Positions 7,566-57,946 of a stretch of 64,000 bases of DNA are shown here, one piece after another. The stretch comes from an uncultured Lachnospiraceae bacterium (lineage in GTDB: Bacteria > Bacillota > Clostridia > Lachnospirales > Lachnospiraceae). Position 1 is the stretch's first letter; each line of letters starts with the position of its first letter. The DNA is taken from positions 4,903 through 68,902 of the forward strand of contig CAZPZR010000001.1 in NCBI GenBank assembly GCA_964591105.1, given 5' to 3'. The position numbers and the translations under genes are program-made. The notes under the pieces were generated by a model, which had not been told where the DNA came from, searched no databases, and saw nothing but the letters and a program-made list of their open reading frames with translations.

Positions 7566-7572
7566 GCCAATG

Positions 7573-31136: not shown

Positions 31137-31236
31137 TTAGGATGTTGAGTTGAAATCATGAATCAGTTATAATAATTAGGTCTGTAAAGGCGAAGCAATT
31201 TACTTGACGATGTGAAATAGATGAGGATTGAAAAGA

Positions 31237-35774: not shown

Positions 35775-35886
35775 GTATGAATTTTTCCTTACATTTTGTC
35801 GATTTTCGGTGATATAATATACTATAAGGGGAGACTGTAGCGTGTTGGGACGGGCCTGACAGACAGTGTCTCCGTAGGAGGTATAT

Positions 35887-36387: not shown

Positions 36388-36478
36388 GCATTGACTTTTT
36401 TCTTGGGATTGGGTATTATTACTTTAGTAGTAAAAAGCGTTAAAGTGTGAAAATATAATGCGGGAAAGGAGATATCCA

Positions 36479-38113
36479 ATGCCAATTACGGAAATATTAG
36501 AAAAGAATTGTCGTTTATATGGCGAAGAGACATGCCTTGTGGAAATCAATCCGGAACTTCCAGAAACAAGACGTGTAACATGGAAAGAATTTGAATTGAT
36601 GGAGCCAGCACCTTCGGCTTATTATCGAAGAGAAATTACATGGAATGTCTTTAATGAAAAGGCAAACCGATTTGCAAACCTGCTCCTGGAACACGGAATC
36701 AAGAAAGGGGACAAGGTTGCAATTCTCTTAATGAACTGCTTAGAGTGGTTGCCAATTTATTTTGGAATCTTGAAAACTGGGGCGTTGGCAGTACCGTTAA
36801 ACTTCCGCTATTCTGCAGATGAGATTAAATATTGTGTAGAACTTGCGGATGTAGACATTCTCGTATTTGGTCCAGAATTTATCGGACGAGTAGAAGAAGT
36901 TGCAGATGAGATCAGCAAAGGACGTTTACTCTACTATGTAGGAGAGGGATGTCCAGGATTTGCGGAAGATTACCGTGCCAATACAGTGAACTGTTCCAGT
37001 CAGTCTCCAAAAATTGATGTCAATGATGAAGATTATGCAGCGATTTATTTTTCATCAGGAACAACAGGATTTCCAAAAGCAATCCTTCACACCCATCAGG
37101 CATTGTTGCATTCTGCGAAGGTAGAACAGAATCATCATGGACAGACGAAAGATGATGTATTCCTGTGTATTCCTCCACTGTATCATACAGGTGCGAAGAT
37201 GCACTGGTTTGGAAGTCTCCTGACAGGTGGGAAAGCAGTACTCCTGAAGGGAACAAATCCAGAATTTATCTTACGTGCAGTATCCGAGGAGAAATGTACG
37301 ATTGTATGGCTGCTTGTTCCATGGGCGCAAGACCTTTTACTTGCAATTGACCGTGGAGAGATTCAGTTGGAAGATTACGAACTGTCACAGTGGCGTTTGA
37401 TGCACATCGGTGCGCAGCCAGTTCCACAGAGTCTGATCAAGCATTGGAAGGAATACTTCCCACAGCATCAGTACGATACTAACTATGGTTTGAGCGAATC
37501 TATTGGACCTGGATGTGTACATCTGGGTGTAGATAATATAGAAAAAGTTGGAGCAATTGGAAAAGCCGGTTATGGATGGGAAACGAAGATCATCGATGAA
37601 CAAGGCAACACCGTTGCAAGAGGTGAGACTGGTGAGTTAGCAGTGAAAGGACCTGGGGTCATGGTCTGCTACTACAAAGATCCAGAAGCTACTGCGAAAG
37701 TGCTTCGTGATGGATGGTTATACACCGGTGATATGGCTATGGAAGATGAAGATGGATTTATCTTCCTTGTAGACAGAAAGAAAGATGTAATCATCAGTGG
37801 TGGTGAGAACATTTATCCAGTGCAGATTGAAGATTTCTTAAGAACTAATGACAGCATTCTGGATGTAGCCGTTATTGGACTTCCAGATCCAAGACTTGGA
37901 GAAATCTCTGCAGCAATTATTGAATTAAAACCAGGAGAGACATGTACAGAAGAAGATATCAATCAATTTTGTAAGAAGCTTCCAAGGTACAAGAGACCAA
38001 GGAAAGTTATCTTTGCAGAAGTACCGCGAAATGCAACTGGCAAGATTGAGAAACCAAAGCTTCGAGAAATGTACGGAGCGCAGCAGTTGGTTGCAGCGCA
38101 GAACTTGGGATAA
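36479..38113 (+). CDS. AMP-dependent synthetase/ligase (acyl-CoA synthetase family)
   Basis: AMP-binding motif YFSSGTTGFPKA, then YGLSE, YTGDMA and the C-terminal GKIEK lysine. ATG 36479 follows aaggag. Confidence 0.85.
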   Translation: MPITEILEKNCRLYGEETCLVEINPELPETRRVTWKEFELMEPAPSAYYRREITWNVFNEKANRFANLLLEHGIKKGDKVAILLMNCLEWLPIYFGILKTGALAVPLNFRYSADEIKYCVELADVDILVFGPEFIGRVEEVADEISKGRLLYYVGEGCPGFAEDYRANTVNCSSQSPKIDVNDEDYAAIYFSSGTTGFPKAILHTHQALLHSAKVEQNHHGQTKDDVFLCIPPLYHTGAKMHWFGSLLTGGKAVLLKGTNPEFILRAVSEEKCTIVWLLVPWAQDLLLAIDRGEIQLEDYELSQWRLMHIGAQPVPQSLIKHWKEYFPQHQYDTNYGLSESIGPGCVHLGVDNIEKVGAIGKAGYGWETKIIDEQGNTVARGETGELAVKGPGVMVCYYKDPEATAKVLRDGWLYTGDMAMEDEDGFIFLVDRKKDVIISGGENIYPVQIEDFLRTNDSILDVAVIGLPDPRLGEISAAIIELKPGETCTEEDINQFCKKLPRYKRPRKVIFAEVPRNATGKIEKPKLREMYGAQQLVAAQNLG

Positions 38114-38125
38114 AATCTCATTGGT

Positions 38126-38162
38126 AACGGGGTTTTTGCAAAAAAACCCCGTTGCCTTTTTT
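38126..38162. terminator. Bidirectional terminator
   Basis: Stem aacggggttttt (38126-38137) pairs with aaaaaccccgtt (38142-38153), flanked by T/A runs. It serves the ligase gene (+) and the split SBP gene (-). Confidence 0.75.
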
Positions 38163-38734
38163 AATTTTCAATTGCTTTTTCAGCGAAAGAAGTATCTACT
38201 AAATCAGCGTATGGTGCGCGTTCGCTGAGTTCACCGGATTCTTCCAAGATATCTTGGAGCAGTTCAAAGCTTTCCTGCTGGAAAATAAGATCCGCTTTCC
38301 AAGTGTTTTGTTCGTAGTAACGTGCAACAATTGTGGTGATAGTATCTAAATCCGTTTCTTTAAATTGTGGGGCAATCAGTGATGCAATTTCTTCTGGAGT
38401 GTGAGTTTGCACATAGTCCATGCCTTTTTGGAGCGCATTGGTGAAGCCCTGAATGATGTCTGGATGCTGCTTGATATAACTTTGTTTGGCAGAAAATGCA
38501 GTATAAGGAACATAGCCGCTTTCTTCGCCAAGAGAAGCAACAACATATCCCCTGCCTTCCTTTTCTAATGCCGTAGCATGTGGTTCAAATTCAACGGTGA
38601 AATCTCCATTTCCTTCGGAAAATGCAGCTGCAGTTGAACCAAAATCAATACTTTGATTAATGGTCATGTCTTTCTGTGGATCCAGATGATGCTCTTTCAA
38701 AATGTATTCAAATACCATCTGAGGCATACCACCT
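38161..38734 (-). pseudogene. 3' part of a split NMT1/THI5-like ABC substrate-binding lipoprotein gene (C-terminal 189 codons)
   Basis: GMPQMVFEYILKEHHLDP...FEPHATALEKEGRGYVVASLGEESGYVPYTAF is NMT1-like. It has no N-terminus of its own; the missing part lies at 50095-50554. Confidence 0.85.
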
Positions 38735-38759
38735 GTCGTTCCCAGCATGATGTAAATGT

Positions 38760-40361
38760 CTACGGGGGATCCGCGAGATTAAGGTGAAAATCTATACCAT
38801 CAGGCAAGCTGTATTTGAAATGAATTTCTGGGGATCCGTATGCATCTACTTCAATCCGTTCAATTAAGATTTCGATATCTTTTCGGTCAAGCACACCGTT
38901 TTCAATAATCTTATCCATTACCTGTAAAGCATTATGAAGTTTTTCTTTTTTATTTTCATTCTTTGAATGGATTTCGTTTAATTCCTGAAGCTTTAATTCA
39001 AAATCATGAATCTGCGAAATGATATCCTGCTGCAGGGCATCGTAGATTTCATTTACAAGATTTTCGTTTCTGTGAGCATTGGACAAGTCTCTGACTTTCT
39101 GAGTAAAGAGAATTTTCAACTGTACTTTTCGTTCTCCCAACTGTTTTTGAATCTCTAAACGTTTTTCGTCTACTGTTTTTTCCTCAGAATCAAAATCCTT
39201 CATATCATAAGCCTCAATGATTTCACAAAGAGAATTTCGACAGAGTTTCAGGTAGGTTATCACATCTTTCATTAGATTATTTTCTTCGATAAGATGGGAT
39301 TTTTCACAATAGCGTTTACCTTTGGTGTTGTATGTGGTACAGATATAATATTTTCGCTCTCTGGCAGTGGTCGTTCGTTTGATTGGGGTTAAACGCTTTC
39401 CGCAATCTTTGCAAAAAAGACAGTTTCCAAAAGGATTCTGCATGTTGGGCAACTGCCTGCGACTGCCACGATAATTATTTTTTACGCGCTTTTCCTTTAT
39501 ATCCTGTATCAAATCAAAAGTGGCTTTATCAATGATGGCAGGGTGATGATTTTCGAAAATATACTGTTCTTCTTTGGGAATACGTTTGTCTTTGCCGTGA
39601 ACCGTAGAACGGGCACGTTTTCGTAATCGAAGGATGCCGATGTAAAAATCATTATTTAGTAGCTCTTTGACCATAGAATCTGACCAGACAGTGGCAACTG
39701 CACGTTTGCTGATTTTCCCTTCTACAAGTTCACGCTTGTGGCGAACCATAGAAGGAGTTGGCACTTTGTGTTTCGTCAAATAATTGGAAATCTTGCGATA
39801 GCCGAAGCCCTTTAGATAAAGGTCGTAAATCATGTGTATGACGGAAGCCTCTTCCGGTATGATTTCCATCGTTGTTTCGTCTTTGTCGTTCCTTTTATAT
39901 CCAAATGGTGGTTGAGTCACCAGGATTCCATCTTTTTGTCTAGCTTCAATCGCACTTTTGATTTTGTGGCTGATATCTTTGACATATTTTTCGTTATACC
40001 AGGTTAAGATGCCAATTGTATCATCGTCATCAGATTCTGAATGATAGTTGGTATCAATGATAACCAGTTCTTTTTGGCGTTCTTTGAAATCTTCCAAAAG
40101 AAGGAGGACGCGAGCGTTATGACGTCCGATACGAGACAGGTCTTTGACAAACACGCGCTCAATATGATCCAAATCCTCCAGTAATCTGTTTAATCCGGGG
40201 CGATTGAAGCTATAGCCGGAGACACCATCATCTTCATACCAACTGTCAATTACGACGTTGTATTCAGCCGCAAATTGACGAATGATTCGTTTTTGATTTT
40301 CAATAGAGACATAATTACGTTTGTCATCATCTCTGGATAGACGTACATACCCAACATTCAT
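38760..40361 (-). CDS. Large serine recombinase (resolvase + recombinase + zinc-ribbon domains, DUF4368-like C-terminus; TnpX-like)
   Basis: Catalytic motif VGYVRLSRDD. Zinc ribbon CLFCKDCG...YYICTTY...CE. C-terminal coiled coil plus IERIEV. Confidence 0.9.
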   Translation of the reverse strand: MNVGYVRLSRDDDKRNYVSIENQKRIIRQFAAEYNVVIDSWYEDDGVSGYSFNRPGLNRLLEDLDHIERVFVKDLSRIGRHNARVLLLLEDFKERQKELVIIDTNYHSESDDDDTIGILTWYNEKYVKDISHKIKSAIEARQKDGILVTQPPFGYKRNDKDETTMEIIPEEASVIHMIYDLYLKGFGYRKISNYLTKHKVPTPSMVRHKRELVEGKISKRAVATVWSDSMVKELLNNDFYIGILRLRKRARSTVHGKDKRIPKEEQYIFENHHPAIIDKATFDLIQDIKEKRVKNNYRGSRRQLPNMQNPFGNCLFCKDCGKRLTPIKRTTTARERKYYICTTYNTKGKRYCEKSHLIEENNLMKDVITYLKLCRNSLCEIIEAYDMKDFDSEEKTVDEKRLEIQKQLGERKVQLKILFTQKVRDLSNAHRNENLVNEIYDALQQDIISQIHDFELKLQELNEIHSKNENKKEKLHNALQVMDKIIENGVLDRKDIEILIERIEVDAYGSPEIHFKYSLPDGIDFHLNLADPP

Positions 40362-40625
40362 AAAGACAATTCCTTGTAGTGATTTTTAATGATTGCCTTT
40401 AATCCGTCGTGAATATTTTCATCTTTCTTCCCATCCAGATAAGTGACAACTCGAAAGCCATGTTTTCTATATTGTTCTTTTGCTGTTTCGAATTCTTCCT
40501 GTGATGAAAAATTATTTCTCCAAAGATAATAGGTTGGTTTGCTCAAATGTGATTTCATCCTCCTCGTCTGATAAGCGGAAGCAGTCTTGCTTCCAGTTTA
40601 TGCAATTTTGCTCTGGGTGTTGCAA
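40348..40625. repeat. Repeat R1, copy a (278 bp): recombinase 5' end, 66-aa ORF and its upstream region
   Basis: Matches 43271-43548 at offset 2923, with about 5 mismatches by eye, all outside the small ORF. Confidence 0.9.
40358..40558 (-). CDS. Hypothetical 66-aa protein translationally coupled to the recombinase (candidate accessory/directionality factor)
   Basis: Its stop overlaps the recombinase ATG (ATGA). An identical copy lies at 43281-43481. The AGGAGG abuts the ATG, so the start is not certain. Confidence 0.55.
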   Translation of the reverse strand: MKSHLSKPTYYLWRNNFSSQEEFETAKEQYRKHGFRVVTYLDGKKDENIHDGLKAIIKNHYKELSL

Positions 40626-40737
40626 GTTCCAGTTGCAGTTTTATCGACTGAACTGAGATTACGGTTTTATTAATGTCAAGGATCGAGAGTGTTTGCTCTT
40701 TTATTGGATAGTATATACAAAAAATCATAGCAAAAAG

Positions 40738-40936
40738 ATGGCTAATTTTAACACAGGCTTTGGCTGTAAATAGTTTTCCGTTTGAAATCAAAAGAGCACG
40801 TACCATTCCATATGAAGCTTTATCTGGAACAGAATTATGGGATAAGTTAGAAAAATCTAGTCAGAACGCAGCATAGGCGAAATATCGTGATGCTTCAGAG
40901 GCTTCTCGTGATATGAGGGAAAAATATGGATTATAG
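40738..40936 (+). pseudogene. Possible RelB/DinJ-family antitoxin remnant
   Basis: MANFNTGFGCK then a stop, a shift to FPFEIKRARTIPYEALSGTELWDKLEKSSQNAA, an in-frame TAG, then AKYRDASEASRDMREKYGL. The (I)PFE and IP..E.L pattern resembles a DinJ C-terminus. Confidence 0.35.
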
Positions 40937-41204
40937 GATTACGAAAACAAAATGTGTTAGTTTATCTGCCATACATTCATCAGAAAATACAGGATAGTCA
41001 AAACTAACATACAATTTGTTTGCGTGATTTAAATTGACACATAAGTCAGTGTTATTGGAGGGGGGGAGTGACATTACCAAATGTTATGCAATAATTAACT
41101 GAAAATATAGACAAGGAAATTCAGAAGTGTTAAAATCTTGTTAAATACAAAGATACAATTGAATTGTATAAGGACGTTAGAGTGTGAAGCAAAGGAGGAT
41201 GAAT

Positions 41205-42941
41205 ATGAATAGGAAACGTGGGAAATCTATAGCAAGTTTATTACTTGTTTTCGCCTTAGTGGTGACATTGTGTCCGGTGGTGGCTCCAGTACCGGTAGAG
41301 GCGGCATCTGGGAATGATTTTGTTGTGAAAGCAATTTCCGATGCAGAAAATGGAGCCGCAATTGATTATGCTTGTACGGATCAGACATTGTATATTACTG
41401 ACGCTGGTTTGGAAAGTATGGCAGAATATTCCGATGATTTTATGACGGGATATCTGGAAGGAGAGGAACCGCAGGTTCAGTGGTTTAGAGAAAAAGGCGG
41501 AAATGCAACAGAAATTGCGGGAGCAACTGGAAGAGTCTATAATAAAGTGTCATTAGCGGATGACTCTGGAGCAAAACTTTATGCAAAAGTAACTTACGGT
41601 GGAGACTCTATCAAGACAGCTAAAGTTCAAGTAGTTAGTGACTCAGAGAGGCTAGAGTTGACTTCTGGAAAGCCAGTAAGAGTACATTTCACTAGCAAAG
41701 GTTATAATTCTCAACAGAATCATTATTGGAAGATTAATATTCCTGTAAATTCAAAAGTTACTGTGAAATTGGATGCTGATTACACAGGAACTTTTGAACC
41801 TTATGTAACAGGTAGATTAGCTGGATCTAGTGGTTATGCTGCTTTTCGTGCTTCTGCGAACGAGAGCGACACTTGTTTTATAGAAAAGGGTGGAGACTAT
41901 TATGTTGATTTCGATGGTAGATCAAATGCTGAAGGTACTTATACATTGACAATCACAGTCGCCCCGATTAACTGGGGAACAGTAACCATCTCAGGATTAG
42001 ATAATTTAGTAGCAGGTACTTATGAAAATACAAAATTCAAAATCAAGTTAACTGGTGCAGATAGTGAAGTTAATCTTGATCGTTGGAGTTCAAATAATGA
42101 TTATAGTACTAATAACTACGATAGTAATCTTTCAGGAAAGAGTGCAACCGGTTATCTCACCACAAGCAGTACAGATGCCGGACACTATAAGTTGGAAGTA
42201 AGGCTGGATAATGAACTAACTTCAGATTTGACGAAAACAGTTATCTTTGATCTGGTTGTCAAACCGAAGAAGATTACAAATTATGATTTGTCAGATCTGG
42301 AAGTAGGATATAACAGTGTGAAATTTACACTTCCATTTGGTGATGGTGCAGGAACTTATGGATCAAAGATTCAGATTCAGAGATACAAATCCGGCAAATG
42401 GACAACTGTAAAAACGGTGAAAGATGGAACCAAGAGTACAACATTGACAGGTTTGAGTTCCAATACATCATATAAATATCGTTTGGTAGGATATGTACCT
42501 GCAAGCAATGGAAAGAAGTCTATTTCTGGTGCACCTTCCAAGACTTTATCCGTCAAGACAGGATACAGCAGCAAGCCACAGGTAAAATCTATCAAGTGTT
42601 ATGATGCAAAACAAAAATATGTTAAGAGAGTGTACCACCCAGGACATTGGACCACAACTGGTAAATGGCAGAACGGATATTATACTGGTGGTTACTATGT
42701 GACAAACTTCAAAGTCAAAGTAACATTGAAGAAAAAGATGACAGGACAGAAAGGTCTTATAATCTATAACGAACTGCTCGATTCAAAGAAAGTTTCAGGA
42801 ACAGGTACGACCTTTACAACAACAATGTCTGTTGATGGAAAAAAGAAAGGCAAAACAATTTCTTTGAAAATAAAAGGATACCGTAATGGTTCTTATCTTG
42901 GATACTCAAAATACACAACCAAGAAAGTAAAAATTAAATAA
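41205..42941 (+). CDS. Secreted protein with a fibronectin type III-like domain and a possible pre-peptidase C-terminal-like (PPC-like) domain
   Basis: Signal peptide ending VEA/AS. A segment around GTYTLTITV may be PPC-like. An FN3-like module follows (SGKWTTVKTVKDGTKSTTLTGLSSNTSYKYRLVGY). Start ATG 41205 lies 6 nt after aaaggagg. Confidence 0.65.
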   Translation: MNRKRGKSIASLLLVFALVVTLCPVVAPVPVEAASGNDFVVKAISDAENGAAIDYACTDQTLYITDAGLESMAEYSDDFMTGYLEGEEPQVQWFREKGGNATEIAGATGRVYNKVSLADDSGAKLYAKVTYGGDSIKTAKVQVVSDSERLELTSGKPVRVHFTSKGYNSQQNHYWKINIPVNSKVTVKLDADYTGTFEPYVTGRLAGSSGYAAFRASANESDTCFIEKGGDYYVDFDGRSNAEGTYTLTITVAPINWGTVTISGLDNLVAGTYENTKFKIKLTGADSEVNLDRWSSNNDYSTNNYDSNLSGKSATGYLTTSSTDAGHYKLEVRLDNELTSDLTKTVIFDLVVKPKKITNYDLSDLEVGYNSVKFTLPFGDGAGTYGSKIQIQRYKSGKWTTVKTVKDGTKSTTLTGLSSNTSYKYRLVGYVPASNGKKSISGAPSKTLSVKTGYSSKPQVKSIKCYDAKQKYVKRVYHPGHWTTTGKWQNGYYTGGYYVTNFKVKVTLKKKMTGQKGLIIYNELLDSKKVSGTGTTFTTTMSVDGKKKGKTISLKIKGYRNGSYLGYSKYTTKKVKIK

Positions 42942-42958
42942 GAAACCTTAAGTAAATG

Positions 42959-43008
42959 AAAACATCCTCTCATGGAGAAATATCTTCTTCTGAGAGGATG
43001 TTTTTTTG
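42959..43008 (+). terminator. Rho-independent terminator
   Basis: 12-bp stem aacatcctctca (42961-42972) pairs with tgagaggatgtt (42991-43002), followed by ttttt. Confidence 0.75.
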
Positions 43009-43270
43009 TGTTGAATAATTCCGAAAAATATTGCATTGTTAATTTTCACAATTTCTATGTTTGCATAGTGGAAAAATTATTTTACTGGGGATATGCACAT
43101 TGAACATAGTATTGTGGGAATTTTATTATCAAGAGTAGCAAAGAAGACAGTGAGAATGAAAAAGAAGGAAAACGAAAGAGTATGAGGGAGGAACTATGAA
43201 AAAAATGAGTTTTTTGTGTGCATTAAGTATTTCAACAGCGATTCTGTGTGGAATCTGGTCTTACCTGGCT
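43003..43270. repeat. Repeat R2, copy a (268 bp): promoter/leader and first 25 codons of the DUF1097 gene
   Basis: Matches 44861-45128 at offset 1858 with 6 mismatches by eye. Five lie in the first ~50 nt and one is a synonymous change in codon 8. Confidence 0.9.
43196..43270 (+). pseudogene. Truncated 5' fragment (25 codons) of a DUF1097 gene, fused to repeat R1b
   Basis: MKKMSFLCALSISTAILCGIWSYLA is identical to the start of the 45054 gene. The reading frame then runs into antisense R1 sequence and stops after 13 codons. Confidence 0.85.
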
Positions 43271-43548
43271 TACCCAACGTTCATAAAGACAATTCCTTGT
43301 AGTGATTTTTAATGATTGCCTTTAATCCGTCGTGAATATTTTCATCTTTCTTCCCATCCAGATAAGTGACAACTCGAAAGCCATGTTTTCTATATTGTTC
43401 TTTTGCTGTTTCGAATTCTTCCTGTGATGAAAAATTATTTCTCCAAAGATAATAGGTTGGTTTGCTCAAATGTGATTTCATCCTCCTCGCTTGATAAGCG
43501 GAAGCAGTCTTGCTTCCAGTTTATGCAATTTTGCGCTGGGTGTTGCAA
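43271..43548. repeat. Repeat R1, copy b (278 bp), recombinase-less
   Basis: It begins with tacccaacgttcat, which is the first 13 nt of a recombinase gene on the minus strand (MNVG then a stop), and continues through the 66-aa ORF and its upstream hairpin. Confidence 0.9.
43281..43481 (-). CDS. Hypothetical 66-aa protein, second identical copy
   Basis: 201/201 nt identical to 40358-40558. Confidence 0.5.
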   Translation of the reverse strand: MKSHLSKPTYYLWRNNFSSQEEFETAKEQYRKHGFRVVTYLDGKKDENIHDGLKAIIKNHYKELSL

Positions 43549-43635
43549 ACGATAGGAGATTTCAATAATAAATTTCAGATTCCTTCCTTGCAGACCAGCA
43601 CACACACTTGAGAAATTTTTTTATCATGATTAGTT

Positions 43636-44133
43636 TTATCGGTCCCACTCATATGCGAGCTTTGGACCTCCATCAAAAGTAATCAGCCCGCAATATTCAA
43701 ACCCTTCTCGGACAAGAATATGCTGCATTACTTTGTTTTCGTCTTGCGTGTCAACACGAATTGCTTCAATCGCATTCTCAATACAGAAATTCTTTATCAA
43801 TGTAATTGCCTTCTTGGACAATCCCTTCCCTCTAGCATTCTGAGAAAAGGCCATTCTATGTACGACGGCATAGGGACGATTTGTTTTCCACTCGCCGTCA
43901 ATAACACGATAAGCTGGTTCATCTCCAATGATAATGCAGCAGTATCCGTAAATTTTATTTTCTTCTTCAAATACATAACCAATACTCGCTTTAATATCGT
44001 CTTCAATCGTAGCAAGTGTTGGGTACCCCGGGTGCCATTGTACAAATCCCATAGAGTTGTGATATGCTCTCGCGTCTTCGATACATTGATAAGATATTTT
44101 TGCTTCATTCATTTGTGCTTTTCTTAATAACAT
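43636..44133 (-). CDS. GNAT family N-acetyltransferase
   Basis: Acetyl-CoA binding segment VHRMAFSQNARGKGLSKKAI. The start was moved to ATG 44133, which follows aggag. Confidence 0.8.
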   Translation of the reverse strand: MLLRKAQMNEAKISYQCIEDARAYHNSMGFVQWHPGYPTLATIEDDIKASIGYVFEEENKIYGYCCIIIGDEPAYRVIDGEWKTNRPYAVVHRMAFSQNARGKGLSKKAITLIKNFCIENAIEAIRVDTQDENKVMQHILVREGFEYCGLITFDGGPKLAYEWDR

Positions 44134-44175
44134 GGTTTTTCTCCTATAAAAAATTTTCGCGATAAACAAAAGATA

Positions 44176-44258
44176 TTGACCTTAGTTTATTTATTCGATA
44201 TAGTGAAAAAAATTCGATATATCGTATTTCTCTTATATTATACTAATAGTCCGATATA
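44176..44258. promoter_or_regulatory. Divergent promoter region with three (T)CGATATA boxes
   Basis: -35 ttgacc (44176-44181), 17-nt spacer, -10 tatagt (44199-44204). Boxes: attcgatata at 44193-44202 and 44212-44221, and tccgatata at 44250-44258. It includes the perfect palindrome cgatatatcg (44215-44224). Confidence 0.5.
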
Positions 44259-44277
44259 TTATCAATGAGGAGAGCAC

Positions 44278-44829
44278 ATGGATATTCAAAAAAATGTAGG
44301 GAAAAACATTAAAACAATTAGAGAGCAAAAGAAAATCACGTTAGACTCAGCGTCAAAACTAACCGGAGTCTCTCGAAGTATGCTTGCGCAAATTGAAAAA
44401 GGAGAAGTAAATCCTACCATTTCCATTCTCTGGAAAATTGCAAACGGATATAAGGTGTCGTTTACTTCACTTGTTAAATACGATACGCCTTCTCTTTTGA
44501 TAAAATCAGAAGAAGTACGCCCATTTATTGAAAGTGATGAAAAATATATTAATTATCCCGCTTTTCCATTTCAAGAAGATAAACAGTTTGAAACATATCG
44601 CATTGAAATAAAAGAAGGTGGATATTTGCAGGCTCAACCTCATTTAGACGGAGCCGAAGAATATATTACTGTTTTTGATGGAGAAGTTGAGATAATAGCT
44701 GATTCGGAAACATTTCGGATAAAAAAAGGCGATTCATTATGTTTTAAGGCGGATGTAGCCCATTCATATAAAAACACAGGAGAAACAACAGCATATTTAA
44801 GCATGATTATTTATTATTCAAATAAATAG
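44278..44829 (+). CDS. XRE-family HTH regulator with C-terminal cupin domain
   Basis: HTH motif LDSASKLTGVSRSMLAQIEKGEVNPTISILWKIA. Cupin motifs: first PHLDGAEEYITVFDGEV, then FKADVAHSYKN. Confidence 0.85.
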   Translation: MDIQKNVGKNIKTIREQKKITLDSASKLTGVSRSMLAQIEKGEVNPTISILWKIANGYKVSFTSLVKYDTPSLLIKSEEVRPFIESDEKYINYPAFPFQEDKQFETYRIEIKEGGYLQAQPHLDGAEEYITVFDGEVEIIADSETFRIKKGDSLCFKADVAHSYKNTGETTAYLSMIIYYSNK

Positions 44830-44860
44830 GATGGAAAGTATGATTCAAGTTCGAGCAGAT

Positions 44861-45128
44861 TTTTTGTATTGAATAATTTCGAAAAATAGTGTATTGTTAA
44901 TTTTTACAATTTCTATGTTTGCATAGTGGAAAAATTATTTTACTGGGGATATGCACATTGAACATAGTATTGTGGGAATTTTATTATCAAGAGTAGCAAA
45001 GAAGACAGTGAGAATGAAAAAGAAGGAAAACGAAAGAGTATGAGGGAGGAACTATGAAAAAAATGAGTTTTTTGTGCGCATTAAGTATTTCAACAGCGAT
45101 TCTGTGTGGAATCTGGTCTTACCTGGCT
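44861..45128. repeat. Repeat R2, copy b (268 bp), continuous with the intact DUF1097 gene
   Basis: See copy a. Confidence 0.9.
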
Positions 45129-45524
45129 GGGATGGTTGGATTAATCGGTTGGGCTGGATTTGCCGGATGTACAACATATTTTGCATGCGGAAAGCATGGG
45201 GCAGAAGGTGTTAAGAAGACGATTATTCCAAATCTGACAGGAGTAATTTGTGGAATGGTGATTATTACATTAAGCAATATTGTCCCAGAATTAGGAGATC
45301 TTGGAATATGGTGTGCGATTATTACGTTTGTAATGTGCATCATAGCAAAATGCGAGTGGTTTGATTTTTGTCCAGGAACATTCATGGGATGCTTTACAAC
45401 ATTTGCAGCTGGCGGTGATTGGAAATTGTTATCGGTGTCACTGGTCATCGGTGCATTTTTAGGTCTTGGATGTGACTACGGCGGGGAATGGTTACATAAG
45501 ATTGTGACAGGAAAAAAATCATAA
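45054..45524 (+). CDS. Small polytopic membrane protein, DUF1097-like
   Basis: 156-aa ORF with 4-5 TM helices and the motif GWAGFAGCTTYFACG. The family assignment is from memory. Confidence 0.55.
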   Translation: MKKMSFLCALSISTAILCGIWSYLAGMVGLIGWAGFAGCTTYFACGKHGAEGVKKTIIPNLTGVICGMVIITLSNIVPELGDLGIWCAIITFVMCIIAKCEWFDFCPGTFMGCFTTFAAGGDWKLLSVSLVIGAFLGLGCDYGGEWLHKIVTGKKS

Positions 45525-45625
45525 AAAATATAACAAAAATGGAGATAAAGGTTGAATGACCATCCCCTAATGGTGTACTGTAAAAAAGAAGTTGATTTTA
45601 AAGTAGCTATACTAAGGGGGAAAAC

Positions 45626-47893
45626 ATGAGAAACAAAAGATTAAAAATGATGGCTTGGATTTTGGCTGTTGCTATGTTTATGACAGCGATTCCAGGTGGA
45701 GTTGTCTATGCGGAAGAATCTACGGCGACATCTGAGGTGAGTACGGAGGCGCAGGAAGAGATTCTGGAAGTGCAGGAGGAAATTCCGGCAGCATTGAATT
45801 ATTTGTATATCAATGAAGCAGAGCAGGAAGCAGGAGCGGAACAGAATATCGTTGTTTCCTGGGGCGATGGAACGGAAGAAATCCGTGACATTAAGCTGGA
45901 ATTGGAGAATGCTAAGGGAGAAAAACAGTCAATTAGTTCCATTTATGACGTAGACGGAGTTTTTCTTTTTAGTGATTTCTTTGAAAAAGGAGTATATCAT
46001 GTTACTAATCTTACGATTGTAACTAAGACAGCGGAAAAAACATTTTCTATGGATGAAGTAGGTGTTAATGCTTACTTTTCAGTTGGAAAAGAGTGTTCAG
46101 ATGAAAAGAAGAGTGAACATTTAGAAATGGAGAGTATAGCAACCGATGAAATCGAGACGCAAGTGGTAACAATTGATGATGAGGGTGTTGCGACAGCGCA
46201 GGACAGTATTGCAGACGCATTGGAAGAAATTAGTTCCGGTGAAGTATCTTCTCGCAGTACATCACGAGCAGTGTCAAAGGAAAAGGTAGTGGCACTGGAT
46301 CCGGGACATGACAGTAAACATGTAGGTGCTAGAGGAAATGATGTAAAGGAAGAGGTTGCGACTTTAAAAATTGCGAAATATTGCAAGGCAGAACTGGAAA
46401 CTTATGATGGTGTTACGGTGCTTATGACGCGCGACAATGCAGCATGTCCATTTCCAACATCGACAAGTAATTTAGATGATATTCGTAAACGAGTGCAATG
46501 GGCGGTAGAAAAAGGAGCAAATATATTTGTAAGTATACATTTGAATTCAGCAACTGCAACTTCAGCGAAAGGGGCAGAAGTATATTACGCAGCATCTAAC
46601 AAAAATGGAAAAGATTTGGCGCAGAAGATTCAGAATGAGTTGGTGAAAATTGGCTTATATGACAGAGGAATCAAAAGTGGTGATGTGTACACAGTGATCG
46701 ATGCTTCAAAGAAAAATGGAATTCCTGGTATCATTGTGGAACATGCATTTTTATCGAATAAGTCAGATGCAGACAAATATTTGAAAAAAGAGTCAGGCTT
46801 GAAAAAACTGGGAGTTGCAGATGCAACTGGAATTGCGACATATCTCAAACTTAAAAAGAAAAGTGCTGTGCCAATTACGGAACTGGATACGCCAGTTTTA
46901 AAATCTATCGTTCAAGACGAAGGTGCGGTTACTGTGAACTGGGGAAAAGTAACAAATGCAAGCGGTTATTATATTTATCGTAAACAGGGAGAAGAGCCTT
47001 GGGCGCAGATTGCGAAAGTTACTTCAGGAAAAACGACTTCTTACACAGATAAAACAGTTCCAGAAGGTGAGATTTACAGTTACACAGTGAAGGCATATCA
47101 TGAATCTGTGTACAGCAATTATGATGAAAATGGATTGTCGATTTTTGCATTGGATCAGCCAGTAGTTACTTCGGCAGTATATGATGGAACTTCAATTACT
47201 GTACAATGGAAATCTGTTGAAAATGCGAAAAAGTACTACATCTATCGAAAAACAAACGATGGAAAATGGTCTTGCATTGGAAATGTGGATCAGGAAACAT
47301 TTTTATATAAAGATAGTACAATGGCTGCAGGAAATCGATATTCGTATACTGTTCGAGCATTTAGCGAATCTAATTACAGCAGCTGTTGTGAAGGGAAAGA
47401 AGTAATCAGCTTCACAAAACCAAAACTTGTTTCAGCAAAATACGAGGCAGGTCAGGTGACTGTGAAATGGAAGAAAGTGACTGGTGCAGAAGGGTATCGT
47501 GTATATCGTAAGGAAGAAGGCGGAAGCTGGAAACGAATTGGCAAAGTAGCATCTGGTTCAAAAGTTACATATGCAGATAATAAAATTGAAGCTAGAAAAA
47601 AATATGTGTATATGGTACGTGCATATAAAGGCGATTGTGTGAGTGGATACGAAAAAGAAGGAGTTTCAGTTACAACACCAAAAAAACTTTATATCACATA
47701 TAAGACAAAAACCAATTTGAATTATCGTACGGGTCCGGGAAAATCTTATAAAATTGCAGGTATGCTAAAAAAGAATAAAAAGGTTCAGGTAGTATCAGGA
47801 TATTCCAAGAAAGCAAATGGAATGACTTGGTACAAAATCAAGATAAATTCAAAGTTCTACTATGTATCTTCAAAATATTTAAAAAAAGTGTAA
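45626..47893 (+). CDS. Secreted N-acetylmuramoyl-L-alanine amidase with three FN3-like repeats and a C-terminal SH3b domain
   Basis: Signal peptide. Amidase_3 core (LDPGHDSKHVGA...FVSIHLNS...GAEVYY...VEHAFLSN). Three ~85-aa repeats, each with a W.KV..A.GY.(I/V)YRK pattern. SH3b tail (YRTGPGKSYKIAG...WYKI). Confidence 0.85.
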   Translation: MRNKRLKMMAWILAVAMFMTAIPGGVVYAEESTATSEVSTEAQEEILEVQEEIPAALNYLYINEAEQEAGAEQNIVVSWGDGTEEIRDIKLELENAKGEKQSISSIYDVDGVFLFSDFFEKGVYHVTNLTIVTKTAEKTFSMDEVGVNAYFSVGKECSDEKKSEHLEMESIATDEIETQVVTIDDEGVATAQDSIADALEEISSGEVSSRSTSRAVSKEKVVALDPGHDSKHVGARGNDVKEEVATLKIAKYCKAELETYDGVTVLMTRDNAACPFPTSTSNLDDIRKRVQWAVEKGANIFVSIHLNSATATSAKGAEVYYAASNKNGKDLAQKIQNELVKIGLYDRGIKSGDVYTVIDASKKNGIPGIIVEHAFLSNKSDADKYLKKESGLKKLGVADATGIATYLKLKKKSAVPITELDTPVLKSIVQDEGAVTVNWGKVTNASGYYIYRKQGEEPWAQIAKVTSGKTTSYTDKTVPEGEIYSYTVKAYHESVYSNYDENGLSIFALDQPVVTSAVYDGTSITVQWKSVENAKKYYIYRKTNDGKWSCIGNVDQETFLYKDSTMAAGNRYSYTVRAFSESNYSSCCEGKEVISFTKPKLVSAKYEAGQVTVKWKKVTGAEGYRVYRKEEGGSWKRIGKVASGSKVTYADNKIEARKKYVYMVRAYKGDCVSGYEKEGVSVTTPKKLYITYKTKTNLNYRTGPGKSYKIAGMLKKNKKVQVVSGYSKKANGMTWYKIKINSKFYYVSSKYLKKV

Positions 47894-47977
47894 CAGAAAC
47901 GTAGGAACAAAAGGGAGAATACCAGTAAAAAATATTAGTAATAGACAAATTTGTAAAAAAACAGAAGAATAGATGCT

Positions 47978-48010
47978 AAGAAAGTCGGGAATTCAACTCC
48001 CGACTTTCTT
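47978..48010. terminator. Bidirectional terminator
   Basis: 13-bp stem aagaaagtcggga (47978-47990) pairs with tcccgactttctt (47998-48010). Confidence 0.75.
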
Positions 48011-48017
48011 GATATTG

Positions 48018-48473
48018 TTACATAATTTTATTTAAAATACATCTTGATACAAAAAGGCATACAGCAAAGGTTGCGAGAATGACCAATATAGTTTTCATTA
48101 CAATTACATTCAGTGCACCAGTAATTAGGAGTGCAATGTAGAGGATAAGAAACATTGCATACCCTGCGTATGACCAACATTTAAGGCCAATCATGCGATT
48201 TCTTTCATCAAATTCGTAAATTTCACGATTCTTTAAAGCTTCTTCATTTTTAAGCAATCGAATATTCCGAATGATTGTGATAATGCTTGCGGCAATGAGC
48301 GAACATCCAGTTCCTACATAAAATCCAGAAGAATATGCAGTATTGCCGGAAGCAAGTGGTATAAATGTTCCAACATAAAGTGAAGCACTTCCTAAAATGA
48401 CAAGCACTACACAATAAATAATACGAAATTTGATTTTCTGTTTAATACTTTTTCTTGAATTATTTGGTAACAT
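48018..48473 (-). CDS. Small membrane protein (about 4 TM helices) co-transcribed with the XRE regulator
   Basis: 151 aa counted from MLPNNSRKS (internal ATG at 48473). The longer tracked ORF overlaps the XRE gene out of frame. Confidence 0.5.
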
Positions 48474-48675
48474 GTGATTCCTCCTCGTCGAATAAAAATA
48501 TTTCTTCAATGGACTTCCCAAAATAAACAGCAATCGTGTGTGCAAGCATAAGTGATGCGTTGTATTTTCCGTTTTCCAATGAAATGATTGTTTGTCTTGT
48601 GACATTAACTGCATTTGCAAGTTCTTCCTGAGAAATGCGGTGTTCTTTTCGTAATTCTTTAATTAGATTCTTCAC
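48460..48675 (-). CDS. XRE family HTH transcriptional regulator (71 aa)
   Basis: [39 protein letters not shown] is a Cro/C1-type HTH. Confidence 0.85.
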
Positions 48676-48700
48676 GACTCACCTCCAAAATGTAAAATTA

Positions 48701-48761
48701 ACTTTACAATAAAAGTATAGTTTACTTTACAATAAATGTCAAGTTTATTTTACATTTATTG
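48701..48761. promoter_or_regulatory. Operator-like repeats upstream of the XRE gene
   Basis: actttacaataaa occurs twice (48701-48713 and 48724-48736). A perfect 10-bp inverted repeat, caataaatgt (48730-48739) and acatttattg (48752-48761), is also present. Confidence 0.45.
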
Positions 48762-48874
48762 CGAATGAATTGAAAGTCTATTATACTGAATACATGAGAG
48801 ATACCACGGGATATGTGTTTTGCGTGGGGGGAAGGAAGCAAGTGGGTTCCTGAGATGTAAGAAATTCCTCATAG

Positions 48875-49080
48875 AAATCCGCACCAATCCAAAAGAAAAA
48901 GAGTCCCATAGAACCCCACAAATCAAAAAATAAATTCAAAAAGATACTTATTGAGAGTGTTTATTTTCAGATGTCAGATAATGATATTGCAAAATTGCAT
49001 AATATGACTAAGGACAATGTGAGAAAAATTCGTTCTCGCGCAAAGCAAAAGCTGATTGAGAAAATGAAGGAGGAAACATA
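48875..49080 (+). pseudogene. 5'-truncated sigma-70/ECF-type sigma factor remnant (region 4 only)
   Basis: The open frame after TAG 48872-48874 reads ...KKILIESVYFQMSDNDIAKLHNMTKDNVRKIRSRAKQKLIEKM, a region 4.2 HTH. No region 2 is present. The stop lies 1 nt before the anti-sigma ATG. Confidence 0.5.
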
Positions 49081-49081
49081 G

Positions 49082-50068
49082 ATGAGTGAGTGGAATGAAA
49101 ATAAATTGGATCAAGAGCTAGAAGCGATTATGAACGATATCCCAGAATCCGACGATTTGGAAAAACGGGTGAATAAGTGTATTGACCGCAGAATCAAGAA
49201 GACAGTGGTTCGAACTGTAGGATCCATTTTGGTGATTGTGATAATTGCAATATTTATCATCAATCCAGTTATGAATATGGCATTTTTTAATCCTTATAAG
49301 ATGAATGATGGTGAGGAGCAGAAAATGCTTGGTGTCATGAGAGACTATGTAGAAACAGTTCTTCCATATCGAGAAGTTTCAAGCTTGGAAGTAGAGAAAC
49401 GAGGATTTGGAAGATATGAAATCTCTATGCAGTGGTTAGATTTGTCTCAATCTCAGGTGCAAATTGGTGAACCGAATGTATGGGTAGAGATGAACTGGGG
49501 AACATACGAATCTGTGAAGGATGCAGATTCCGCTATGACAATTAACGTCGGCAGATTCAACTGTACTTACGAGGATCAAAAGAAAATGATCAACCAAATC
49601 GAGGAACTTCCAAAGTCAGCGAGGCTATATTTGTCTATCGGTGATGCTCAGCCGAAATCAATTGAGCAATTAAGAAGTTTTCCAGTGACATTGCTCTGGA
49701 TGCAAGTCTATCAGCCGAAAGTAGAATTCCAGGGAGGATTATCCTACCAACCAATTTCCCTGTATAGTAACGATGATGATAGAGAGGAAATGTCAGGACA
49801 AGAGCTCTTGGAAGTATATTTTGAAAACTTGAAAAACATGATAGATCATCCAGAAGTATGGAAAGGAATTGGAGTTTTTAACAGTGGAGACGGCAAGATT
49901 TATACAGAACCGGAAACAGTTTTAAAGGAAACTTATGAAGATGCAATGAAATTAACGGAGCTGAAAAGCAAGAACTATTGTGTTGTTGGTAATCGAGATG
50001 AGATTCTTGAGTTTTTACGTGAAAATACTTGTGATTCCATCAGCGTAGAGAATGTTACACTCTGGTAA
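49082..50068 (+). CDS. Anti-sigma factor-like membrane protein (single TM, sigma-regulator N- and C-terminal domains)
   Basis: 328-aa ORF with a short cytoplasmic N-terminus, one TM helix (VGSILVIVIIAIFIINPV) and a large extracytoplasmic domain. It sits immediately after a sigma gene remnant. Confidence 0.55.
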   Translation: MSEWNENKLDQELEAIMNDIPESDDLEKRVNKCIDRRIKKTVVRTVGSILVIVIIAIFIINPVMNMAFFNPYKMNDGEEQKMLGVMRDYVETVLPYREVSSLEVEKRGFGRYEISMQWLDLSQSQVQIGEPNVWVEMNWGTYESVKDADSAMTINVGRFNCTYEDQKKMINQIEELPKSARLYLSIGDAQPKSIEQLRSFPVTLLWMQVYQPKVEFQGGLSYQPISLYSNDDDREEMSGQELLEVYFENLKNMIDHPEVWKGIGVFNSGDGKIYTEPETVLKETYEDAMKLTELKSKNYCVVGNRDEILEFLRENTCDSISVENVTLW

Positions 50069-50094
50069 GAAAATTTACATTGTTCGGTGGATGT

Positions 50095-50554
50095 CACCTT
50101 TTCGACCACCAAGGATATTTTTGCCTTTCAAATCTTCCCATTTGAAATCCGGCATTTTCTCGCGTGCGACAAGGAAATTTCCAGCACGTTGCGTCAGTTG
50201 TGCAAAATTAATGACAAAATCATTGGCGCCTTCGTTGTAAGTGTAGATGGAAGACTCAGAGCCCATAAAACCGATGTTGGCACTGTCGGAAAGAACAGCA
50301 GTCATTGTTTTGTCTGCACCGAAGCCGGTGACAAGAGTAAGGGCAATCCCTTCCTCTTCGAAATACCCATTTTCAATGGCGACGTACATTGGGGCATAGA
50401 AGATAGAATGTGCCACTTCATTTAATGTGACCGCAGTAAGAGCATCTTCGGATGTGTGAGAAACAGTGGCAGTTTCCTGCTTTGCGCTGCATCCACTCAG
50501 GATGGACAGGATCAGAAGCAGTACAAGAAATACAGAACAGATACGTTTTTTCAT
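50095..50554 (-). pseudogene. 5' part of the split NMT1/THI5-like substrate-binding lipoprotein gene (N-terminal 153 codons)
   Basis: Signal peptide with lipobox LSGC, then VTLNEVAHSIFYAPMYVAIENGYFEEEG...NILGGRKG. Six element-encoded codons and a stop follow (50075-50094). Confidence 0.85.
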
Positions 50555-50696
50555 AAACGTCCTCCTTAAAATGTCTTAGCGATATAGTATATTCTGCAGA
50601 AAAGAAAAGGTGCTGGTGCAAGCGTTTACTTTACTTTTTTTGTATGTTACAATTCACTGGAATGAATCTATAGGAAAGAGAATAACGGAGGACAAA

Positions 50697-52022
50697 ATGA
50701 AGGACAATTATTCAAGAAATGAAGCATCCATTGATAACATTTACACTTTGGATGGAAAAGTACCATTGGGAAAATCAGTCCCATTTGGACTACAGCATGT
50801 ACTTGCAATGTTCGTAGCAAATATTGCACCAATTATGATCGTGACAGGTGCAAGCGGACTGAGTGCGCAAGAGACAGCAGCTTTGATTCAGACAGCCATG
50901 CTTATGGCAGGAATCGGTACATTTGTACAGCTTTTCACAGTATGGAAATTGGGCGCGCGCTTGCCAATCGTAATGGGAATCAGTTTTACATTTGTTTCTA
51001 TTTTCTGTTATGTCGGACCACAGTGGGGATATGAGGCTGTGATCGGTGCGGTTATCGTAGGCGGAATTGTCGAGGGACTTCTTGGGTTCTGTGCAAAATA
51101 TTGGCGTAAGATTATTTCACCAATTGTTGCAGCATGTGTAGTTACAGCAATTGGATTCAGCTTGTTGAGTGTTGGAGCGAATTCCTTTGCTGGAGGAAGC
51201 GGAGCGGAAGATTTTGGTAGTGTAGAAAACTGGATGTTGGGTACCATTACATTAATTTGCTGTATTGCATTCAATATTCTGGCAAAAGGACATTTGAAGC
51301 AGTTGAGCGTTCTTTTTGGATTAGCAGTAGGATATGTGGTTGCAATCTGTATGGGTGTTGTTGATTTCTCAGCATTAGAAGGTGTTGGAATTGTATCTAT
51401 TCCAAAATTTATGCCTTACAAACCAGTTTTTAATCTTAGTGCGATCATTTCCGTAACGATGATTTTCCTCGTGTCTGCGACGGAGACAATTGGAGATACT
51501 TCTGCGATGACTAACACGGTACTTGGCAGAGATGCGACGGACAAAGAGATCTCTGGAAGTTTGGCGTGTGATGGACTGATCAGTTCTTTATCCGCATGTT
51601 TTGGATGTATGCCAATTACATCATTCAGTCAGAACGTAGGACTGCTTGCAATGACAAAAGTTATTAACCGTTATACAATCGCGACAGGGGCAGGAATCTT
51701 GATTCTTGCAGGAATTTTTCCAGTAGTTGGTGCGGTATTGGCGACACTTCCAGAATCAGTGCTCGGTGGATGTACGATTATGATGTTCGGAAATATCGTA
51801 ATCTCTGGGCTTCAGATGATTGGATCTTGCGGATATACACAGAGAAATATTACAATTGCTGCGTTATCATTAAGCGTAGGTCTTGGATTTACACAGGTAC
51901 CAGAGATGTTCCGTATTTTCCCAGACATTATTCGCACAATTTTTGCAGAAAACTGTGTAGCAGTTGTATTTTTAACGGCAATTATATTGAATTTGATCAT
52001 GCCAAAAGAAAAAGAAGCATAA
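50697..52022 (+). CDS. NCS2 family nucleobase (uracil/xanthine-type) permease
   Basis: Motifs FGLQHVLAMFVANIAP and ATETIGD. 441 aa counted from ATG 50697, which lies 6 nt after ggagg. Confidence 0.85.
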   Translation: MKDNYSRNEASIDNIYTLDGKVPLGKSVPFGLQHVLAMFVANIAPIMIVTGASGLSAQETAALIQTAMLMAGIGTFVQLFTVWKLGARLPIVMGISFTFVSIFCYVGPQWGYEAVIGAVIVGGIVEGLLGFCAKYWRKIISPIVAACVVTAIGFSLLSVGANSFAGGSGAEDFGSVENWMLGTITLICCIAFNILAKGHLKQLSVLFGLAVGYVVAICMGVVDFSALEGVGIVSIPKFMPYKPVFNLSAIISVTMIFLVSATETIGDTSAMTNTVLGRDATDKEISGSLACDGLISSLSACFGCMPITSFSQNVGLLAMTKVINRYTIATGAGILILAGIFPVVGAVLATLPESVLGGCTIMMFGNIVISGLQMIGSCGYTQRNITIAALSLSVGLGFTQVPEMFRIFPDIIRTIFAENCVAVVFLTAIILNLIMPKEKEA

Positions 52023-52035
52023 GAGAGGTTAGCAT

Positions 52036-53178: not shown

Positions 53179-53181
53179 GGA

Positions 53182-56346: not shown

Positions 56347-56365
56347 TACTGCGTCTCCCTTTTTA
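56329..56365. terminator. Bidirectional terminator between sbcC and the DUF1846 gene
   Basis: Stem ggagacgcag (56329-56338) pairs with ctgcgtctcc (56349-56358), followed by cttttt. Confidence 0.65.
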
Positions 56366-56368
56366 AGA

Positions 56369-57835: not shown

Positions 57836-57946
57836 GTTCGTTCCCCTTTTCTATAAAAAATATATTTTTAGTTTCAGTATGGAATAATCCAATCCTTAGT
57901 ATACTACAAGATATAGGAAGTTTACAATCTTTTCATAATCTTTTTA

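Follow-up and report, generated by a model that had tools for sequence, protein, structure and literature searches.

A large serine recombinase element that splits an NMT1-like lipoprotein gene in an uncultured Lachnospiraceae bacterium and its probable place in a horizontally mobile family

The DNA analysed here, referred to throughout as the window, is a stretch of 64,000 nt from an uncultured Lachnospiraceae bacterium (GCA_964591105.1, contig CAZPZR010000001.1, forward-strand positions 4,903-68,902), and all unprefixed coordinates are window positions (1 = first letter). Within it, the gene for an NMT1-like substrate-binding lipoprotein is split by an 11.4-kb element that encodes a large serine recombinase (LSR). 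The element is probably a site-specific LSR integrative element related to integrative mobilizable elements (IMEs), and a partly decayed, cargo-only member of a horizontally mobile family found in gut Lachnospiraceae. This family is very abundant, apparently undescribed and directed at a single conserved target; no description of the recombinase family or of its target was found in the literature, although the library searched is incomplete and so gives no proof of novelty.

The target encodes an NMT1/THI5-like ATP-binding cassette (ABC) substrate-binding lipoprotein, which is named as a NitT/TauT-type binding protein in the source annotations. Its two parts and the pentamers at the break points were located as follows.

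38161-38734, minus strand: 3' part of the lipoprotein gene, codons 154-342 and stop, colinear with orthologues and with the intact protein P0246.
38730-38734: CACCT core overlap of the junction nearer the recombinase gene; the gene strand reads AGGTG.
50095-50099: second CACCT core overlap, that of the distal junction.
50095-50554, minus strand: 5' part of the lipoprotein gene, with signal peptide and LSGC lipobox, codons 1-153.

The 5' part is carried by a minus-strand open reading frame (ORF), 50075-50554, in which 153 gene-derived residues ending in ...NILGGRKG are followed by six element-derived codons (DIHRTM) and a stop; identical copies of this 159-aa product were found on 11 contigs. 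The minus-strand ORF carrying the 3' part, 38161-38748, starts at an element-derived ATG at 38748 and reads MLGTTG, then GMPQMVFEYILK..., with 189 gene-derived residues. Deletion of 38735-50099 (11,365 bp) in silico yields an uninterrupted 342-codon ORF containing ...GGRKGGMPQM..., and the rejoined site expected for the window strain contains ...GGTGGTCGAAAAGGTGGTATGCCTCAGATGG.... A first-pass annotation of the window had proposed both ORFs, the CACCT pair and the in-frame rejoin by removal of 11,365 bp; all of its coordinates were confirmed on reading the sequence.

The Pfam NMT1 domain (E 2e-23) covers residues 54-263 of the rejoined protein and bridges the joint. Thousands of Lachnospiraceae proteins matched the rejoined protein at E <= 1e-20, the best 120 being 339-406 aa long with 75-78% identity. 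As the first-pass annotation had foreseen, the intact orthologues that were aligned were colinear across the RKG/GMPQM joint, and the motif LGGRKGGMP was invariant. The top-scoring orthologue (P0001, 406 aa, NCBI) carries a 47-residue tandem duplication (alignment columns 139-185, QRAGNFLV...GGRKGGMPEMVFEYILKEKG) in which the att-site motif lies; the duplication may have arisen in assembly or may be genuine and located at the recombination hot spot. Rfam and tRNA scans of the window returned nothing, hence no riboswitch and no tRNA target.

The same species also has a naturally empty site. When the N-half product is clustered at 90% identity, its cluster includes the intact 342-aa protein P0246, which is four residues off the in-silico rejoined protein. 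Its contigs (L166-L169) share the gene order of the window (SbcC, SbcD, xanthine permease, NMT1, AMP-binding enzyme and CarD) and are without the element, their unoccupied attB being equal to a precise deletion of it. L166 aligns to window 31201-38734 (95.5%) and to 50095-57089 (95.2%), and the two alignments share exactly 5 nt, namely CACCT; the empty allele that the first-pass annotation had suggested seeking was thus found, with the alignments abutting at the pentamer. In these contigs the lipoprotein gene is flanked by a divergent xanthine/uracil permease gene and a convergent AMP-binding enzyme gene, in agreement with the earlier remark that no partner transporter gene lies beside it.

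The first-pass annotation had itself named an assembly chimera as an explanation to be checked. Misjoining of the 11.4-kb interval into the gene is refuted by independent junction-spanning contigs, no point in its favour was found, and its probability is close to nil. The right junction was present in eight independent assemblies (L170-L177), of which L170 is 99.99% identical to window 45099-57950 (12.8 kb), and the left-junction ORF with its foreign MLGTTG start was present on four further contigs. Both junctions were also present in a related strain (L001) with a host flank ~96% identical to that of the window, so that the junctions were recovered independently in many assemblies and strains.

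The ends of the element were delimited from the core overlaps and the flanking arms.

38735-50094: element-specific DNA, 11,365 bp including one pentamer copy; a related copy occupies the same site in L001.
38735-38759: attP-derived arm beside the recombinase gene, with the octamer ATGTAAAT on the plus strand at 38750-38757, 15 nt from the core.
50073-50094: distal arm derived from attP; its inverted octamer, ATTTACAT at 50073-50080 (plus strand), lies 14 nt from the core.

On the gene strand the recombinase-side arm reads ATTTACAT, 15 nt, AGG(TG) and the far-side arm AGGTG, 14 nt, ATGTAAAT. The attP of the family is ATTTACAT-N15-AGGTG-N14-ATGTAAAT, a pattern conserved in ~80 loci, and the expected attP joint of an excised window copy contains ...GGGAACGACAGGTGACATCCACCGAACAATGTAAAT.... 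The octamers are inverted repeats 34 nt apart (15 + 5 + 14), and the symmetry of the arms places the centre on the GG of AGGTG; in hosts with a GGC codon instead of GGT, only AGG is common to both junctions. We infer that GG is the crossover dinucleotide (CC on the plus strand, 38732-38733 and 50097-50098). The short shared core and the imperfect inverted-repeat arms characteristic of serine recombinases were found at both ends. A scan of viral contigs for attP gave no match.

Under the proposed mechanism, the element attP would recombine with a single host attB in the invariant LGGRKGGMP motif of the lipoprotein gene, with strand exchange at the GG that joins the codons for Gly153 and Gly154. 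Integration would leave two non-functional gene halves, and excision, if any, would restore the gene exactly. The interruption of the gene would be a by-product of a very conserved target choice and no regulatory device. The window copy retains the recombinase, a small ORF and both att arms, with a cargo of cell-envelope and regulatory genes.

Site specificity was assessed in 86 loci including the window, made up of 80 metagenome loci with the closest recombinase relatives (62-83% identity) together with loci for individual homologues. The octamer arm was found in 81 of the 86 loci, and in all but two of these 81 it leads directly into GGMP(E/Q)MVFEYIL; the C-half of the NMT1-like gene therefore begins at the same glycine. 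One of the two exceptions, L086:1-11761 (JGI Ga0129316_1001057), has a 123-nt terminal overlap that makes it an 11.6-kb circle with an intact attP. The recombinase of this circular relative (5789-7813) has 674 aa, and where it can be matched to the window enzyme the identity is 83%; the circle also encodes ParE, XRE regulators, a D5-type primase-helicase and an HD-domain protein. The other exception, L094:6587-6650, has a recombinase 99.7% identical to site-faithful copies and sits in a PTS-EIIC-like membrane protein gene, where the insertion sequence matches the normal attB half-site at ~8/16 positions; it is a natural secondary (pseudo-attB) integration. The 14 elements with both junctions measure 3.9-11.4 kb. 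A further observation was made in L084:11928-13475, and also in L108 and L131, where the lipoprotein C-half is cut again ~46-50 codons past the first site. After this cut L084 has a 454-aa serine recombinase on the opposite strand, beside a phage-like DUF927 primase, ERCC4 and AAA_24, and this cut resembles an additional att site within the gene.

The elements spread horizontally. The recombinase clusters hold thousands of member sequences, including those of Coprococcus comes, Mediterraneibacter gnavus and Dorea, and a recombinase scan of viral contigs returned a single relative (62%). Over 1,953 locus pairs, the nucleotide identity of the recombinase shows no correlation with the identity of the host C-half (r = 0.11): many pairs have recombinases that are 99-100% identical in hosts whose target genes are only 63-75% identical, and host alleles that are 98-100% identical can carry recombinases only 73-80% identical. 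Occupied and empty sites coexist at 97-99% host identity (L090/L029; L133/L038/L012; L140/L023); L090 and L029 are 99.2% identical over 6.5 kb apart from the element, and L133 and L038 provide a clean natural attL/attR/attB set. An alignment of the region upstream of the recombinase across the loci had too many indels to be informative. The relatives L116, L138, L144 and L163 encode a Mob_Pre (MobV) relaxase (E 2e-52), accompanied in some relatives by a DnaG-type zinc finger; others encode RepA_N and an IstB-like ATPase, and toxin-antitoxin pairs are common. To judge from these gene matches, the modules of the relatives are the make-up of integrative mobilizable or replicative elements.

In the species of the window, ~44 contigs have a split allele and ~10 an intact one. 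The insertions there are of at least three types, the window type, the L001/L178 type and the L086 type; L178 represents a third cargo variant, and the L086-type insertion was recognized from the N-half tail VASIVM in P0247 (L180 and L181). The host flanks of the window, of L001 (occupied) and of L166 (empty) are roughly equidistant (95.7-96.8%).

The recombinase of the window copy was assigned as follows.

38760-40361, minus strand: large serine recombinase, 533 aa, with Resolvase, Recombinase and Zn_ribbon_recom domains.

The Pfam matches were PF00239 (E 2.5e-24), PF07508 (E 8.5e-27) and PF13408 (E 4.3e-08), and the PHROG 'integrase' family matched with E 1e-95. Every column that is invariant across 13 relatives is kept, including Ser9 and the SRxGR motif. 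The best sequence match among solved structures was TnpX (2mhc, E 6e-12), over the catalytic domain only. Together these matches support the enzyme as the putative integrase of the element. The stop codon (38760-38762) lies 25 nt inside the boundary, much as the first-pass annotation had placed it. The ORF is intact, with a ratio of non-synonymous to synonymous substitution rates (dN/dS) of 0.17 between the window and L001, and the 533-aa type was found in three diverged strains with different cargo.

Typical relatives are ~649 aa long and possess an extra conserved C-terminal domain (MNRRENEIIYQTM...YTSAKYLSKALTDLG...LKPYTI), for which only a weak DUF5343 match (E 1e-4) was obtained. This domain, absent from the window enzyme, is also missing from P0122, P0138 and P0144 (alignment columns ~570-694), with three different end points for the window/P0122 lineage, P0138 and P0144. 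In three loci inspected at the DNA level (window, L001 and L083) the stop codon immediately precedes the att arm. Other hosts (L001, L082, L083 and L085) have, at the same site, recombinases that end short of the crossover; four such recombinases (533-540 aa) are likewise without the C-terminal domain, and the end points differ. Short forms of the enzyme appear, from these sequences, to have integrated or persisted repeatedly. The first-pass annotation had identified the recombinase correctly and overlooked its C-terminal truncation, together with the internal duplications and composite nature of the element and a sigma-gene stump.

In 76 of the 81 assessable loci (L087-L165 and L084; e.g. L116:9498-11445) the recombinase ORF spans the crossover. 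In the integrated form the octamer encodes (D/Y)LH and AGG encodes Arg, seven host codons, W(H/Y)AGNG(I/L/F), follow, and the invariant Phe-Glu codons of the host provide the stop. When circular, as in L086 and in the attP reconstructed for ten elements, the ORF ends in a conserved ~28-aa tail encoded by the element, RWRTYINVN(L/Y)E(S/T)IVILCNWVDG(M/L)NSAK. Beyond the att arm pN/pS is ~0.4, with synonymous changes outnumbering non-synonymous ones, which is suggestive of a real peptide in the circular form and not conclusive. The window enzyme, ending 25 nt before the crossover, has lost the read-through feature. A tentative and rather doubtful idea is that the tail is state-dependent, so that the recombinase would read its own integration state and could set directionality or stability without a classical recombination directionality factor (RDF). 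If this were true, the window copy would be a derivative freed from tail control, and either frozen or under the control of the host or of the small ORF; such host or small-ORF control would then be its only route to a true gene switch.

The remainder of the element contains the following features.

40358-40558, minus strand: small conserved ORF, 66 aa, with a 4-nt overlap with the recombinase start.
41184-42941, plus strand: cargo protein of 585 aa with an N-terminal hydrophobic signal-like segment; no family match; also in L001.
43002-43270, plus strand: 98% copy of 44860-45128, with the first 75 nt of the DUF1097 gene and the sequence upstream of it.
43271-43548, minus strand: second copy (99%) of 40348-40625, comprising the first 14 nt of a recombinase gene and the small ORF (43281-43481).
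43636-44169, minus strand: cargo GNAT acetyltransferase, within the extra module.
44278-44829, plus strand: cargo regulator with XRE helix-turn-helix (HTH) and cupin domains, within the extra module.
45054-45524, plus strand: cargo DUF1097 membrane protein.
45626-47893, plus strand: cargo N-acetylmuramoyl-L-alanine amidase, 755 aa, with a hydrophobic signal-like N-terminus, immunoglobulin (Ig)-like repeats and an SH3 domain.
48018-48675, minus strand: XRE-type HTH gene (48460-48675), then a predicted membrane protein of 151 aa (48018-48473).
48688-48757: three 23-nt direct repeats and a 34-nt imperfect palindrome, just upstream of the XRE-HTH gene.
48932-49081, plus strand: stump of an extracytoplasmic function (ECF) sigma-factor gene, last 49 codons (region 4); 180 aa in L001.
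49082-50068, plus strand: anti-sigma-like membrane protein, 328 aa (Sigma_reg_N), now orphaned.

The small ORF (~62 aa in the family) and the recombinase are the only genes common to all 14 complete elements. The small ORF was found in 71 of the 86 loci, mostly with a GTG or TTG start directly after an in-frame stop. Its distance from the recombinase varies from the 4-nt overlap to >5 kb (homologues in L082-L165), which indicates that cargo has entered the space between these two genes. Annotations give it no name beyond hypothetical protein; neither Pfam, with one weak sub-threshold match (E 0.02), nor PHROGs assigned it to a family. An AlphaFold2 (AF2) model gave a beta-alpha-beta-alpha arrangement of moderate confidence (predicted local distance difference test, pLDDT, 71), for which a Foldseek search of the PDB found nothing below E 0.5. 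Its product is the sole candidate for an accessory or directionality factor.

The internal duplications reveal a composite structure. The DUF1097 duplicate meets the recombinase stub at 43270/43271 with no microhomology, and the 1,858-bp module 43271-45128, bounded by both duplications and containing the GNAT and XRE-cupin genes, is absent from L001. The copy at 43271-43548 is best read as the scar of a second, related element that would have been joined to the first and then partly deleted. No internal att site is left at the scar, which may have formed either by homologous recombination between variants or by site-specific accretion. The family has other scars of this sort: L082 (5343-5438) holds a partial second copy of the small ORF. 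The endpoint of the sigma-gene deletion adjoins a ~50-nt hairpin repeat (48832-48881) that is present in one copy in the window and in seven in L001. This repeat reads AAGGAAGCAAGTGGGTTCCTGAGATG.AAGAAA.TCCTCATAGAAACCCG, and its L001 copies (reverse-complement 9894-11853) flank the XRE-HTH/membrane-protein pair and overlie the ECF sigma gene region. The repeats at 48688-48757 are probably the operator of the XRE-HTH gene. No capsid, terminase, relaxase or type IV secretion system (T4SS) family was matched in the window in Pfam or PHROGs, and tblastn for remnants of relaxase, replication and primase genes in the window found none. The earlier statement that the element has no genes of the former four kinds was thus borne out, and its description as a small non-conjugative or decayed integrative element fits.

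Several observations weigh against the reading of the window copy as a partly decayed member of a mobile family. Compared between L001 and the window, the split halves differ by 34 synonymous and 3 non-synonymous changes; their dN/dS of 0.02 equals that of the neighbouring intact AMP-binding gene and would also fit a gene still in use. The ~100-aa C-terminal domain of the recombinase, kept in 76 of 81 relatives, has been lost, and the window copy may therefore be immobile. No transfer function was identified in it with tools that do not recognize an oriT, and the window's own strain yielded neither a circular form nor an empty site. A collection of 15 billion proteins does not contain the exact rejoined protein of this strain, though the strain occurs in at least eight samples. 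The anatomy, the target, the natural empty site, the site specificity and horizontal spread of the family and a circular relative are observed, whereas any excision of this truncated copy and its mode of transfer are inferred.

The dN/dS value invites a reading in which the host keeps the element as a programmed reversible switch, like skin, SPbeta or gin, that excises in response to a set cue, for instance sporulation or a shortage of nutrients, and so rebuilds the lipoprotein gene in a fraction of the cells. In its favour, the ORF would be restored exactly on excision, both halves are intact, C-halves are intact in 61 of the 68 assessable loci of the family, the element is pared to little beyond recombinase and cargo, as skin is, and the truncated recombinase is under purifying selection. 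Such a switch is nevertheless improbable. The recombinases of the window and L001 are 91.1% identical against 96.3% for the flanks, so that the element has diverged more than the host; the cargo differs among strains; no excised allele of the window strain is on record; and no regulator tying excision to a signal was found. The value of 0.02 was considered as decisive evidence for a switch and rejected, given the greater divergence of the element, the equidistance of the hosts, including the empty one, and the mobility of the family. Family-wide horizontal transfer explains the intact halves, because the insertions would be independent and recent. The analogy with skin and SPbeta drawn in the first-pass annotation is accordingly unsupported: the family is mobile, empty, window-type and L086-type alleles occur together in the species, and the target is not a known sporulation gene.

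An inactive or integration-only recombinase would make the window copy a locked-in relic and the lipoprotein gene permanently inactivated in this lineage. This is less likely than not, but it has points in its favour: the C-terminal domain and the read-through tail are missing, there are no relaxase, replication or primase genes or remnants of them, the sigma-gene stump and the deletion scars show internal loss, and no empty allele of the strain is on record. Against it, the recombinase ORF is intact with its family-invariant residues and a dN/dS of 0.17, the conserved octamers are retained in both att arms, short recombinases occupy the same site in L001, L082, L083 and L085, and the 533-aa type occurs in three diverged strains with different cargo. 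The probability left after the switch and the relic falls to a still-excisable, non-autonomous element. Derivation from a temperate phage with an LSR integrase is very improbable for the window copy, where genes for capsid, portal, terminase and tail are all lacking; the weak PHROG matches to a 'major tail protein' are confined to the Ig-like repeats of the 755-aa amidase. The PHROG 'integrase' match and the 'endolysin' match of the amidase part would favour a decayed prophage, as would one relative on an IMG/VR contig (L085) and one small relative with DUF5131, a phage-associated family. However, the amidase is 755 aa long and has a hydrophobic signal-like segment at its N-terminus, the complete relatives are all just 3.9-11.4 kb, and the 14 complete elements share only the recombinase and the small ORF, the modules identified being relaxase/primase or plasmid-type replication.

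As an IME-related integrative element, the window copy can be compared with several known systems. Tn4451 and Tn4453 (TnpX), integrative mobilizable elements of Clostridia, are likewise small, with a single large serine recombinase, a circular form and a 2-bp crossover, and the MobV/Mob_Pre relaxase of several relatives resembles TnpZ. TnpX requires no directionality factor, and Tn4451 integrates with low site specificity (PMC5704250), whereas the Lachnospiraceae family uses one site with a single secondary-site exception (L094). Similarity to TnpX is limited to the catalytic domain and the window copy has neither relaxase/MobV nor a resistance gene; it is thus not a member of the Tn4451/3 group. 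Site-specific serine-recombinase IMEs, for example streptococcal ones in rumA, disrupt their target gene and can undergo tandem accretion with decayed elements (PMC5704250). The serine IMEs of Firmicutes share with the window element the insertion inside a conserved gene, the very short flanking repeats and the variable cargo, and differ in host family, target gene and recombinase lineage; the window copy has the integration/excision module and is without the relaxase that defines IMEs. The scar at 43271-43548 fits two related elements that were joined and partly deleted, as in cis-mobilizable elements (CIMEs) and in the tandem accretion of genomic islands on the ICESt1/ICESt3 model (PMC5704250).

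In skin, SPbeta and gin of Bacillus and Clostridioides an LSR-bearing element splits a protein-coding gene that is rebuilt by precise excision (PMC4191935, PMC5595907, PMC5025042), and gin is also a small non-prophage element. The genes that they split are sporulation genes, and their excision, which takes place in the mother cell, is governed by sporulation and assisted by a dedicated RDF, whereas the window-type element is polymorphic in the species and horizontally spread, with no developmental control evident; neither a sporulation-gene target nor stable vertical retention was found. Gene products that depend on integration are known from the repressor of mycobacteriophages BPs and Brujita and from SSV-type archaeal integrases (PMC3694055, PMC4557955, PMC8371274). 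The attP of 76 of the 81 relatives similarly lies inside the recombinase 3' end, so that integration alters the C-terminus; the known cases involve tyrosine integrases and a repressor or a split int, whereas here the tail belongs to a serine recombinase, and the window copy has lost the feature.

The window copy is an ordinary, partly decayed representative, and the main leads, the tail and the use as a tool, concern the family. If functional, the read-through design would be a new mode of serine-recombinase control. The recombinase/attP pair, with an attB conserved in Dorea, Coprococcus, Mediterraneibacter, Faecalimonas, Sellimonas and Schaedlerella, is a candidate integration tool for hosts that have been reported as hard to engineer (bioRxiv 10.1101/2025.11.08.687059). 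For the bacteria themselves, such insertions inactivate a conserved solute-binding lipoprotein gene in many gut Lachnospiraceae, and do so in a large proportion of their strains; in this dominant gut family the interruption is a frequent cause, reversible in principle, of differences between strains.

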